Shown one piece after another: positions 42,275 to 52,835 of a stretch of DNA of 64,000 nt. The DNA comes from Escherichia coli. GTDB taxonomy: Bacteria; Pseudomonadota; Gammaproteobacteria; Enterobacterales; Enterobacteriaceae. The notes beneath the pieces were generated by a model. It was not told the DNA's origin. It saw nothing but the letters and a program-made list of their open reading frames with translations, and searched no databases. Each line of letters begins with the position of its first letter. Within the stretch, counting starts at the first letter, position 1. The position numbers and the translations under genes were made by a program. The stretch lies in assembly GCF_016903815.1 (NCBI RefSeq), contig NZ_CP069973.1; one strand, 5' to 3'.

Positions 42275-43399
42275 TTAAATTTGCTTTTCATACAATCGGT
42301 AACGCTTGTACGGCTCCGCCCCAATGCGTTCCAGCATGTTATTCATGCCTGTATTGGTTTCGAGGATCCATGACATCTCCAGCGCATCGATCTTCCGGCG
42401 GGCAAACGGATCGCGTAAGGCTTCAATCAATAACAGCGCAATCACCGGGCCGATGCGGCTGAACTGATACTCGTCGCGCACGCCCATCAGCGGTACTCGC
42501 GCAGTTCGCACACCGCTGACTTTCAAACGCCACAGCAATTTTGCCCAGCCGAAGGGAAAGAGCGATCCGTTCAGATCGGCAATCGCCTCGTTGATGTTCG
42601 GCAAGCCGACAATAAACGCGCAGGGTGCAGAATCAATCTCAGCGATATAGATCATATCGTCCGGCACCAGATATTTAAGTTGATCGCCCATGGTCGCGAA
42701 TTCATGTTCGGTAAACGGCACAAATCCCCAGTTGTGCTGCCAGCCAGAGTTGAAAATCTCACGCAGGATCTGCATCTCTTCGGCAAACCGCTGACGATTG
42801 ATGCAGCGAATGGTCACCTTTTTGCGCACCTGATCCATCAGTTTTTTTAGCGCCGGAGAGAAAGTGAGATCGGTTCGCTGCATCCACCACGCCAGTAAAT
42901 CAATGCCTTTGTGATAACCCAGTTGTTCAATATGCGCGGCATACCACGGTTTGCCGTGTGGCATCATCGCACAGGGTGGTGTGTCAAAACCTTCAATCAG
43001 TAATCCGCTTTCCTGATTGATATTCAGGCTGAAAGGACCGCTGATCTTACTTGCACCTTGTGACTTCAACCACGCTTCCGCTGCGCCAAACAACGCGGCA
43101 AAAACCTGCGGATCATCAATGGCGTCAATCATGCCGAAATGACCGGTATCTTTGCCGTAACGCTCGCGGTGCAAGGTATCTATTTGCGCGGTAATACGCC
43201 CAACTATCTGCCCCGCTTTTTTTGCCACCCACGCCTGCCAGATGATATGGTCCGTCCCCGGATTTTTCGCAGACAAATGCTCGTTGCGTTCAATGAATAA
43301 AGGGGGTATCCAGTTTGGATCGTCGGGATAAAGTGATGACGGAAAAGCGATAAATGCCTTAAGGTCATTTTTATTAATTACTTTTTCAATTTTAATCAT
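42275..43399 (-). CDS. yghO: YghO family protein; candidate N-acyltransferase partner of the adjacent lipid operon
   Basis: ORF open from 43495, with more plausible starts at internal Mets (MIKIEKVINKND..., at about 43399); divergent from the acyl-AMP ligase operon. Acyltransferase assignment is an inference, not a motif call. Confidence 0.6.
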   Translation of the reverse strand: MIKIEKVINKNDLKAFIAFPSSLYPDDPNWIPPLFIERNEHLSAKNPGTDHIIWQAWVAKKAGQIVGRITAQIDTLHRERYGKDTGHFGMIDAIDDPQVFAALFGAAEAWLKSQGASKISGPFSLNINQESGLLIEGFDTPPCAMMPHGKPWYAAHIEQLGYHKGIDLLAWWMQRTDLTFSPALKKLMDQVRKKVTIRCINRQRFAEEMQILREIFNSGWQHNWGFVPFTEHEFATMGDQLKYLVPDDMIYIAEIDSAPCAFIVGLPNINEAIADLNGSLFPFGWAKLLWRLKVSGVRTARVPLMGVRDEYQFSRIGPVIALLLIEALRDPFARRKIDALEMSWILETNTGMNNMLERIGAEPYKRYRLYEKQI

Positions 43400-43784
43400 C
43401 AGCAGATCGCATTCCATAGTTCTGTTCTGTGGGTAACAAATAATTAACGGTGACAAACAGGTTGCAACAGCAACGAACGGCACCTTAATAATCAACCCAA
43501 TGAATACAAACGACGAATAAATAGTATTTATTAATGATTACGATAAGGTCAGAGACTACACAGAAGCGCCACAATGCCTTTTGTCGATTTAAGGCGACCG
43601 GACAAGGCTTCTTCTTAATATATTCATAAATTAAATATCATTCACAATAAAAACAAAAAAACTCAAACTCATTATTTAAATCAATGTTCATTTTCACACT
43701 GATGAAAATACTATCTCATTTATCTTTTATGCCTATATAATCCACCGCATTATTGTCATTTTATTTTGGATATCCAATTTTTTC

Positions 43785-50661: not shown

Positions 50662-51486
50662 CTATAGCGGAAAACGCGAAATCAGCAGCTCTAAGCGCTG
50701 ACGAATATCGCTATCCAGCGCCACCGGTGCATCATACGACTGGCGGTTTTCCATATCATCCGCCACCATGTCGTCGTGTTTATCTCCCATCAGGCCATTA
50801 ATGGCGGCGAGGAAGCGGGATATCTGTAACGCCTCTTTATTTTCAGGATCAAGCGATCTTAAGGTGTCGTAATAAGAAACCTGCTGGCTGATGATTTTTC
50901 GCACATCATGAAATTCCCTACCGGTTAGTCGCGGTTTGGCAATAATCTCTTTCAGGGTATGCATTTGCTTTTGCCGATAGGCAATAAAACTGCTTACGCT
51001 TTCTAACTGGCTATGGCGTAATGAATAGTTCACCAACGACCAGACCGGAGAGCTTAAATAAATCCGTAACAGGTTGCCGTAATACGACACAATATTTTTC
51101 TTACCGTTACGAAAGCCGTCCTGAAAACGCCCCAGAAAAACGGTCGTTTTGCCGAATAAAAATCCGGCCTGATGCTTCTTTAAATACAGCCGTTGCGCAA
51201 AACGCAGGTGCTTGTAGCGCGCTCGCATGTATTTAAATTGTTTGCGCTCATCAGCAGTCAGCTCATCGCCTTTGGCTTGTTTGCGAACTAAACGCAGTAA
51301 CTCCTGACGATCAACGCCATTGAGCCAGAATTGCAGGCATAACGCGTAATTATCATGAATGATTTCGGTGGTACAACTTAGTGCAATAGTCGGCGGCAAA
51401 CTAACCTGTGCATCAACGACATCATCTTCTTCAATCGCAACAAATAGACGCTCGCTCGCCTCAAGCGGGAAATATTTTCTCATCAT
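50662..51486 (-). CDS. Hypothetical cytoplasmic protein
   Basis: 274 aa ORF with no signal peptide or TM segment; 1-bp junction with yghQ suggests co-transcription; no recognisable motif. Confidence 0.6.
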   Translation of the reverse strand: MMRKYFPLEASERLFVAIEEDDVVDAQVSLPPTIALSCTTEIIHDNYALCLQFWLNGVDRQELLRLVRKQAKGDELTADERKQFKYMRARYKHLRFAQRLYLKKHQAGFLFGKTTVFLGRFQDGFRNGKKNIVSYYGNLLRIYLSSPVWSLVNYSLRHSQLESVSSFIAYRQKQMHTLKEIIAKPRLTGREFHDVRKIISQQVSYYDTLRSLDPENKEALQISRFLAAINGLMGDKHDDMVADDMENRQSYDAPVALDSDIRQRLELLISRFPL

Positions 51487-52835
51487 CAGGATTTCTCTCC
51501 GGCTGCGTTATAAAGCAAGGAATGGCGCTGAAAAAATGCCTTTAAGGTTGGAATTAACGAGAGCGCCACGTCCAGACATTGCCCACCGAAGTAAGCAAAC
51601 GCTGCTCCCAGCACACCAAACAGATGACAGAACATGAACAGCAATACGATGTAGCCGATTGAGGCGATGGTTTGCGCCACGAGAAAAGCGCGCTGTTTTC
51701 CCGCCATCAATAGCAATGACTCCTGAGGGAAGCCCAGCATCGAAATCACAATTGCGCCCAGCATCACCTGAATCAGGTCATACGCTTCGAGATACTTAAC
51801 GCCAAACACCAGCGAAATGAGCGGCTTGCCGACGATCAACACCGCGAGCGCCACCAGAATACCGATTCCGCCCGCCAGTAAACCGGACTTCACACCTAAC
51901 AACCACGGTCTGGTGGTGCGCGGATCTAAACGCATCACCTCTGGGTAAAAACTTTTACCCAGCAAACCCGCTGGCGTTCCGGCGGCGTCGAAGAATGTCA
52001 TGGCGATTTTAAATAACCCGGCGGCAGCGGGTCCTAACACGATCCCCACCAACACTGTGCTGCACGAGTTACGCGCCGACCAGATGGAGTGGGCAATGTT
52101 GGTTGACCAGACAAAACTCCACGCGCCTTTAATGTGTCGGGCAGACTCAAACAGATTCAATTTGAAGGCGTTATGGATATTTCGGCGGCGTAATTCGCGC
52201 GCGGCAAACCACCAGTACATGGTGCCGCCAACCAGATTCGACACGTACCAGGCAATAACAAAACCCGCAAAACCAAAGTCAAAATACCAGGCTACGACGC
52301 TCCCCGCTGCGCGCAGAAAAGGTTTCGTCGCCTGCTGTACAGCAATTAAATCGAAGCGATCTACCGCACGCAGAATGCCGGTCGGCGTGGAGGAAGCCAT
52401 TGAAGGAATGAGCGTGCAATAGAGCGCTGCCAGCCAAAAACTTTGGTCATCCAGACCTAATGAATGGGAAAGGAATGGCAGTAAGGCAATGCCACCGACA
52501 ATCGCCACCGCGCCGCTGACGATATCCAGCGAGAAGGAAAATGAGACGACATTGCGGAATTGCTGCGGATTATTGTTGGTTAATGCTGGTGTTCCGTACT
52601 GAACCACCAGTTGCCATGTCTGAAACTTAATAAAATCGCTGATCGACTTGGCGTACGATTGCACAATCACCAGTACGCCAAACATGGCGGGCGTCATCCC
52701 TTTACCGGCACACGAGAGCGCCAACAGACCCAGCAAGGCGCTCACGACATTACTGGAGCCTAACCAGGCGCTATTGCGAATAATGGTGCGAAACGCGCCA
52801 TCTGCAAACCAATGTTTGATGTTAAAACCCGCCAA
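51486..52835 (-). CDS. yghQ: MOP-superfamily (Wzx/MurJ-like) lipid-linked substrate flippase
   Basis: 449 aa polytopic membrane protein; polysaccharide-biosynthesis-protein-like. Confidence 0.8.
   Translation of the reverse strand: MAGFNIKHWFADGAFRTIIRNSAWLGSSNVVSALLGLLALSCAGKGMTPAMFGVLVIVQSYAKSISDFIKFQTWQLVVQYGTPALTNNNPQQFRNVVSFSFSLDIVSGAVAIVGGIALLPFLSHSLGLDDQSFWLAALYCTLIPSMASSTPTGILRAVDRFDLIAVQQATKPFLRAAGSVVAWYFDFGFAGFVIAWYVSNLVGGTMYWWFAARELRRRNIHNAFKLNLFESARHIKGAWSFVWSTNIAHSIWSARNSCSTVLVGIVLGPAAAGLFKIAMTFFDAAGTPAGLLGKSFYPEVMRLDPRTTRPWLLGVKSGLLAGGIGILVALAVLIVGKPLISLVFGVKYLEAYDLIQVMLGAIVISMLGFPQESLLLMAGKQRAFLVAQTIASIGYIVLLFMFCHLFGVLGAAFAYFGGQCLDVALSLIPTLKAFFQRHSLLYNAAGEKS

Follow-up and report, generated by a model that had tools for sequence, protein, structure and literature searches.

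What does Escherichia coli do with a chromosomal interval that encodes homologues of ceramide-synthesis enzymes side by side with a second pair of Lpt-type permeases, and how did the laboratory strain K-12 come to be without it? The question is raised by positions 42275-52835 of a 64,000-nucleotide stretch of E. coli DNA (contig NZ_CP069973.1, assembly GCF_016903815.1; hereafter the window), where the genes between yghO and yghQ are intact. E. coli is the textbook Gram-negative bacterium with "no sphingolipids", and what is known of its envelope biology comes almost entirely from K-12. The analysis reported here leads us to conclude, with a probability of roughly 0.8, that the interval represents the sphingolipid locus of Proteobacteria in its Enterobacterales form, ancestral in E. 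coli, and that K-12 lost most of it by a deletion associated with the insertion sequence (IS) IS5.

Results

Ten intact open reading frames (ORFs), as judged from ORF calls and their translations, tile positions 42275-52835 almost wholly, the largest gap being the 409 bp between yghO and aasR, and inspection of the ORFs of this interval revealed no transposase-like ORF or IS. Eight intact genes sit between yghO and a full-length yghQ; the feature is therefore real, and the count of eight genes without an IS given in the preliminary description is exact. In strain NCTC122 the interval aligns as a single piece at a rounded identity of 100.0%, with all ten genes annotated as intact coding sequences, and the urinary isolate 222 is 100% identical to the window over 39754-56800. 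Operon structure is visible in the sequence because stop and start codons overlap at aasR-epi, acpR-spt, lptF2-lptG2 and between yghQ and the gene of a 274-aa protein, and because the 34 bp that separate the convergent spt and lptG2 are taken up by a perfect, GC-rich hairpin (47881-47915; stem of 16 bp). One such hairpin was found against 0.2 expected, and it likely serves as a bidirectional terminator.

The corresponding region of K-12 is very different. Alignment of MG1655 (NC_000913.3) with the window by blastn showed that the K-12 flanks match up to 43377 and then from 51767 onward, and that the eight genes are absent; the missing 8.39-kb segment (43378-51767) is replaced by a 1,195-bp element, IS5LO, annotated at 3130146-3131340 between yghO (b2981) and yghQ (b2983). 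Along with all eight genes K-12 has lost the first ~13 codons of yghO with its promoter and the last 94 codons of yghQ, whereas fragments of these two genes and intact yghRST are retained. The N-terminus of K-12 YghO is IS5-derived, replacing MECDLLMIKIEKV, the first 13 residues, with the upstream region also gone, and of the 449 residues of YghQ only the first 355 remain in K-12, where a stop codon arises at the IS5 junction. Annotation and alignment thus bear out what the preliminary description had stated, namely an IS5 copy between yghO and yghQ with the intervening genes absent, and with it the suggestion that the laboratory model strain lacks the pathway.

It could be argued conversely that the K-12 state is the ancestral one and that other strains acquired the eight genes as an island between yghO and yghQ, as might be expected in a neighbourhood that is a variable hotspot. 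This is, to our mind, scarcely credible, given that yghO and yghQ are each truncated in K-12 and run into IS5 sequence, with the yghQ stop at the junction and the YghO N-terminus supplied by the element, that yghO, yghQ and yghRST are clustered with the rest of the gene set in Serratia and Sodalis, and that the GC content of the locus matches that of its flanks.

The K-12 joint also bears on how the segment was lost. The IS5 copy is complete, 1,195 bp with its terminal repeats, and lies exactly at the deletion between the two truncated genes. IS5 prefers YTAR targets, and both flanking tetranucleotides (left, TTAA; right, CTAA) fit this preference; they are unequal, so there is no 4-bp target duplication and the event was not a simple IS5 insertion. 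We infer that K-12 lost the 8.39 kb through an IS5-associated deletion, in which either two IS5 copies recombined or the element transposed intramolecularly. At the right junction (window position 51770) K-12 reads CTAA where the window and NCTC122 read CTGA, and this G-to-A change both creates the IS5 target consensus and converts a Gln codon of yghQ into the TAG at which the K-12 reading frame terminates. No natural polymorphism of this kind was found: the A occurs in 0 of the 4,158 genomes carrying the segment, the best matches of which, at 99.3%, have one mismatch. The K-12-type yghO-IS5 joint was found in 353 genomes, and those sampled among them are all described as laboratory strains or bear laboratory names (ER1709, Keio strains, OV2 and others), with the single exception of strain 19213, for which a human host is listed.

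Five genes of the interval point to ceramide synthesis. The product of spt (46706-47878, plus strand, 390 aa) is a serine palmitoyltransferase (SPT), whose top NCBIfam match is the equivalog NF047599 (599 bits, cutoff 500) and whose translation contains the pyridoxal phosphate (PLP)-lysine motif GTFSKS together with DEAH and HAS motifs. Directly upstream in the same operon, with its stop overlapping the spt start at 46706, acpR (46458-46706, plus strand, 82 aa) encodes a specialised acyl carrier protein that matches PF00550 and, weakly, the acyl carrier protein models of NCBIfam. The first gene on this strand, aasR (43827-45515, 562 aa; alternative starts at 43794 and 43785), specifies a fatty acyl-AMP ligase or acyl-AcpR synthetase, with matches to NF006624 (872 bits, cutoff 600) and PF00501. 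It is followed by epi/cerR (45512-46426, plus strand), the start of which overlaps the aasR stop and which encodes an extended short-chain dehydrogenase/reductase of the NAD-dependent epimerase/dehydratase family (PF01370 and PF01073), with GATGFIG (GxxGxxG) and YAKSK (YxxxK) motifs in the translation. Epi/CerR is predicted to be the 3-keto reductase of the ceramide pathway, and the published comparison of its BL21 orthologue with Caulobacter CerR (CC_1164) gives 34% identity (E 7e-38; PMC9386255, Table S2). The divergent yghO (42275-43417, minus strand, 380 aa), annotated simply as 'protein YghO', is a probable homologue of the GNAT-type N-acyltransferase bCerS/Aca. This homology is taken from the same published table, where the BL21 orthologue ECD_02850 and Caulobacter bCerS (CC_1154) share 44% identity over 98% coverage (E 1e-107; PMC9386255, Table S2); some YghO homologues also match PF00583 and carry the name GNAT N-acetyltransferase. 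The interval therefore shows the hallmarks of proteobacterial ('Rhodobacteria'-type) ceramide clusters: an SPT with its PLP lysine, acpR upstream of spt, a nearby AasR and a CerR/Epi homologue.

Spt belongs to the alpha-oxoamine synthase family along with BioF, Kbl, CqsA-type synthases and cysteate-fatty acyltransferases, which appear among its secondary NCBIfam matches, and one might thus think of another serine- or amino-acid-derived lipid or signal as the product: a sulfonolipid or capnine-like lipid, an alpha-hydroxyketone autoinducer, or a lipopolysaccharide (LPS) modification exported via the second LptFG. The names given by the Prokaryotic Genome Annotation Pipeline (PGAP), 'lipopolysaccharide biosynthesis protein' for yghQ and LptF/LptG for the permeases, and the absence of the Caulobacter head-group genes would agree with such a product. 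We nevertheless regard it as improbable, since Spt scores above the cutoff of the serine palmitoyltransferase equivalog whereas the BioF, Kbl and CqsA-type models stay below theirs, the published product is 3-oxo-sphinganine, and all five ceramide-pathway homologues occur together.

The genes on the opposite strand look to the transport side. LptG2 (lptG2, 47913-48992, minus strand, 359 aa) and LptF2 (lptF2, 48989-50059, minus strand, 356 aa) are paralogues of LptG (TIGR04408, 309 bits, cutoff 240; PF03739) and LptF (TIGR04407, 318 bits, cutoff 230), respectively, the lptF2 stop overlapping the lptG2 start. Hence a second PF03739 LptF/LptG pair lies inside the sphingolipid locus, and no ATP-binding cassette (ABC) ATPase gene (no lptB) is found in window positions 42275-55252. 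The match of LptF2 to the solved E. coli LptF (6mhu_F) has an E-value of 1.8e-25; as it reaches only about 1e-25, LptF2 and LptG2 are to be seen as distant paralogues. With the LPS extractor LptB2FG they share equivalog scores above cutoff, the PF03739 domain and adjacent overlapping genes as in lptFG, but they differ from it in being encoded within a lipid-synthesis cluster, with a sphingolipid as the presumable substrate, and their absence from K-12 means that they are dispensable for LPS export. RefSeq/PGAP naming looks misleading in this respect: under the label 'LPS export ABC transporter permease LptF/LptG' the two paralogues make genomes seem to hold two of each permease.

Upstream of lptF2, a gene of the YtfJ family (50090-50650, minus strand; NCBIfam YtfJ family, 212 bits, cutoff 151) encodes a 186-aa protein that has a signal peptide at its N-terminus and lacks cysteine. 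A low-confidence structural model with a consistent core suggests a thioredoxin-like fold, and the protein lacks the CxxC or peroxidatic Cys site expected of oxidoreductases of the TlpA/DsbE/CcmG class. We considered this paralogue as an LptC/LptA-type beta-jellyroll stand-in for Caulobacter LptC2 and rejected the idea on account of the thioredoxin-like fold.

The 274-aa protein (50662-51486, minus strand), annotated as 'hypothetical protein', is with high confidence an all-helical, two-lobed bundle of the CHAD fold, in which basic and His residues are conserved. By sequence it has no match to the Pfam CHAD family (PF05235), the best Pfam hit (E 0.087) being to an unrelated family, and it is only 10-18% identical to the polyphosphate-binding helical bundles of this fold (PDB 6qv5, 3e0s and 6rn5). 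Unlike the CHAD proteins of polyphosphate metabolism, it sits beside a flippase in a sphingolipid cluster; we found no paper linking CHAD domains with sphingolipids in the literature searched. The start of its gene overlaps the yghQ stop, which couples it translationally to the flippase gene; the yghQ-CHAD pair also occurs within an spt cluster in a homologue that is only 39% identical, and the CHAD-fold gene is co-distributed with sphingolipid loci in Sphingomonas, Zymomonas and acetic acid bacteria, which we take to be sphingolipid producers. Judging from fold and published domain descriptions (HIT, glycerophosphotransferase, Tam41), the CHAD-fold protein is unlikely to correspond to the Tam41-type Caulobacter CpgC (CC_1161) or to CC_1157 or CC_1167. 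The last gene of the interval, yghQ (51486-52835, minus strand), encodes a full-length, 449-aa MOP/Wzx-type flippase with PF01943 and PF13440 matches and a weak match to an NCBIfam MOP flippase model; its family, IPR002797, is also that of Caulobacter CC_1166, described as a 'potential flippase'. PGAP names YghQ 'lipopolysaccharide biosynthesis protein'.

The functional unit appears to be larger than the interval itself. Beyond 52835 lie three genes for P-loop kinase-like proteins, yghR (52881-53641, minus strand), yghS (53673-54386, minus strand; Walker A GCDGSGKS) and the divergent yghT (54560-55252, plus strand; Walker A GSDGSGKS), which are mutual paralogues at 34-45% identity (YghS is 45% identical to YghR and 36% to YghT). 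YghS and YghT score 24-26 bits against dTMP-kinase models with a cutoff of 83, leaving the PGAP name 'dTMP kinase' without support. In Serratia and Sodalis, thirteen genes (yghO, aasR, epi, acpR, spt, yghT, yghS, yghR, yghQ, the 274-aa gene, the ytfJ-like gene, lptF2 and lptG2) co-localise in differing orders, and it is because of this co-localisation that yghRST, which K-12 has kept, are assigned to the module. In the window yghR is frameshifted by a 2-bp CG insertion at 53340-53341 relative to K-12 and NCTC122, which splits it into two ORFs, and strain 222 annotates it as a frameshifted pseudogene. On a Sodalis-like contig, a gene for a DgkA-type lipid kinase (PF01219) lies at 17823-18182 between the homologues of yghO and yghR/S, and on a Serratia contig lptG2 is followed by a phospholipase-like gene and two genes with ankyrin repeats (13856-16919); such genes may be accessories of the lipid locus in particular lineages.

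The distribution of the interval was determined in 5,426 complete E. coli genomes, scoring it as present when at least 80% of its length was matched. It is present in 4,062 of them (~75%), at 96-100% identity, whereas 672 genomes have no match at all (4,754 matched), and the locus is retained across many Enterobacterales genera. Its disruptions are diverse: the whole stretch from glc to yghT is absent from O157:H7, where IS elements and a toxin-like pseudogene adjoin a truncated pitB, an element of the ISEcp1 family lies inside the interval in strain M21170, the loss in strain EC0026B is associated with IS1B, and strain ET979 has an extra ~1.1 kb. The locus is thus ancestral and common in E. 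coli, but repeatedly lost.

Comparison with strain PA45B, which is 96% identical and phylogroup-divergent, gave ratios of non-synonymous to synonymous substitution rates (dN/dS) of 0.04-0.20 for every gene tested, among them yghT (0.04), lptF2 (0.055), spt (0.07), lptG2 (0.09), yghO (0.095) and epi (0.10), values similar to those of the flanking glcC (0.11) and pitB (0.02). These ratios indicate that the genes tested are under purifying selection. A dN/dS of 0.66 obtained for aasR was discarded as an artefact of an unaligned 3-bp indel, this gene being 97.3% identical at the nucleotide level between the window and PA45B with one in-frame 3-bp indel.

Transcription of the two ceramide-side arms would start from the 409-bp region between the divergent yghO and aasR (43418-43826), which has ~41% GC and long A/T tracts, is nearly all deleted in K-12 and is presumed to be the control region. 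Only one weak match to the sigma-70 consensus was found there, no more than chance, and consensus promoter scans of the two divergent regions of the locus were set aside because their matches did not exceed chance. By its composition the region looks like a candidate for silencing by nucleoid proteins, which would fit a silent locus in BL21.

Elsewhere in the window we noted a group 2 capsule (kps) cluster in the 1-34811 region with a JUMPstart element at 14824-14862, a complete beta-type type II secretion system (T2SS-beta; gspC-M, pppA and gspS2) with sslE at 27784-32361, the small RNA C0719 at 34590-34811 and naRNA4 at 60053-60129. K-12 presumably also lacks kps and has a degraded T2SS-beta, in which case the whole neighbourhood is eroded in that strain.

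Discussion

The preliminary description presented this pathway as unstudied, which is not the case. Padilla-Gomez et al. (2022) described the BL21(DE3) locus as ECD_02850 (yghO, named aca), ECD_02851 (aasR), ECD_02852 (epi), ECD_02853 (acpR) and ECD_02854 (spt), that is, the same chromosomal locus with the same five ceramide genes in the same order as in the window, and stated that Caulobacter and E. coli BL21 alone have these five dihydroceramide genes in a cluster (PMC9386255). They showed that BL21 AcpR carries 4'-phosphopantetheine, that BL21 AasR acylates its own AcpR, and that E. coli AasR, AcpR and Spt, when over-expressed, together make 3-oxo-sphinganine (PMC9386255). Their paper leaves out lptF2/G2, the ytfJ-like and CHAD-fold genes, yghQ and yghRST, reports no native product and mentions neither K-12 (0 occurrences of 'K-12') nor the IS5 deletion. 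On the transport side, Olea-Ozuna et al. (2024) proposed LptC2/F2/G2 and the PF01943-type flippase CC_1166 as the sphingolipid transporters of Caulobacter (PMC11324152), and Uchendu, Isom and Klein (2026) reported that Caulobacter LptF2 and LptG2 bind each other and LptB, that lptF2G2 can be deleted only without anionic sphingolipid synthesis, and drew the sphingolipid operons of E. coli UTI89 as homologous beside those of Caulobacter (bioRxiv 10.64898/2026.04.12.717747). The locus, its likely function and the Lpt-type transporter are therefore already in the literature. As for the proposal that loss from K-12 explains a lack of study, the part concerning K-12 stands, the pathway being absent there by blastn with IS5 in its place, and the part concerning the lack of study falls with the BL21 and UTI89 work; the deletion may still explain the late notice of the locus and the absence of a reported native product. 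In the literature searched we found no paper tying the K-12 IS5 deletion to loss of a sphingolipid pathway, and for expression data under the locus tags only a pathway-map mention.

The most informative comparison is with Caulobacter crescentus CC_1152-CC_1168 (ccna_01210-01226), which shares with the E. coli locus spt, acpR, aasR, cerR, bCerS, a PF01943 flippase candidate (CC_1166) and LptF2/LptG2, again with no lptB in the locus. By domain content, the E. coli locus lacks CC_1152, CC_1153, CC_1158, LptC2 and CpgA/B/C of Caulobacter; it has instead YghR/S/T, the CHAD-fold protein and the YtfJ paralogue, whereas the published descriptions of the 17 Caulobacter genes mention no domains of these kinds. 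As the Caulobacter head-group domains are absent from the E. coli locus, the head group, if any, is likely made differently or is itself different.

A pathway can be proposed on this basis. AasR would load a fatty acid onto the dedicated carrier AcpR, and Spt would condense the acyl-AcpR with serine to 3-oxo-sphinganine, two steps established for the BL21 proteins. By analogy with the Caulobacter homologues, YghO would then N-acylate and Epi/CerR reduce the 3-keto group to give dihydroceramide. The same analogy suggests that the lipid could be handled by the products of the convergent operon yghS-yghR-yghQ-CHAD-ytfJ2-lptF2-lptG2, with YghQ as a putative inner-membrane flippase and with LptF2G2, borrowing the housekeeping ATPase LptB, extracting the lipid toward the outer membrane. 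It is tempting to speculate that phosphorylation or handling of the head group could fall to YghR/S/T, the CHAD-fold protein and the cysteine-free YtfJ paralogue; YghR/S/T might act as kinases on the lipid or on a precursor of its head group, while the CHAD-fold protein could bind an anionic, phosphate-rich group beside the flippase.

Several observations weigh against our interpretation of the locus and of its loss. Neither YghO nor the 274-aa protein matches any family in sequence searches of Pfam, NCBIfam and PDB, and CpgA/B/C are among the Caulobacter genes missing from E. coli. The locus has been lost or interrupted in about a quarter of the genomes, including the O157:H7, IS1, ISEcp1 and K-12 cases, and the window strain itself has lost one gene of the 13-gene module, yghR, unless the frameshift is an assembly error. 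Empty-vector controls of BL21(DE3), in which the chromosomal locus is present, contained no detectable 3-oxo-sphinganine (PMC9386255), and we found no report of a native E. coli sphingolipid in the literature searched. With regard to the deletion, none of the 5,426 genomes shows the intermediate of a two-step route, which would be a lone IS5 copy, with target duplication, at the yghQ-side or the yghO-side junction of a cluster not yet lost. Finally, the K-12 junction carries the G-to-A change, which may be either a mutation that preceded the insertion or a by-product of transposition.

The BL21 controls imply that the locus is possibly silent in ordinary laboratory culture, and they bring forward what we consider the main live alternative, a serious possibility although short of an even chance: that E. 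coli carries the locus in an intact but cryptic form, silenced or expressed only in rare niches, so that the species has effectively no sphingolipid and K-12 lost it without ordinary consequence. The lack of a reported native lipid, the long and AT-rich divergent control region, of an often-silenced kind, and the frequent independent losses by IS5, IS1 and ISEcp1, in O157:H7 and by the yghR frameshift in the window all favour such a state. It is harder to reconcile with the low dN/dS of all genes tested between divergent phylogroups and with retention in some three quarters of the genomes and in many Enterobacterales genera, which would not be expected of a functionless relic. We would advance more tentatively, as a doubtful but attractive explanation, that under certain conditions an outer-membrane sphingolipid is formed in the majority of wild E. 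coli and in many Enterobacterales by way of a new module (YghR/S/T, the flippase-CHAD pair and the YtfJ paralogue) that replaces CpgABC/LptC2, the yghRST, yghO' and yghQ' of K-12 being its orphan remnants. Conditional expression is compatible with this explanation as well as with a cryptic locus.

What is new beyond the published work lies with the native product, so far unreported, with accessory genes specific to Enterobacterales (YghRST, the CHAD-fold protein and the YtfJ paralogue) and with a quantified distribution. We did not find in the literature the ~75% occurrence with purifying selection, the membership of yghRST in a 13-gene module, or the count of 353 genomes with the K-12 junction. 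The module offers a lead to function by genomic context for five y-genes of K-12, yghO, yghQ, yghR, yghS and yghT. Moreover, should the locus prove to be expressed in some niche, a component would be missing from K-12-based models of three things: the outer membrane, resistance to polymyxin and detergents, and host lipid signalling.

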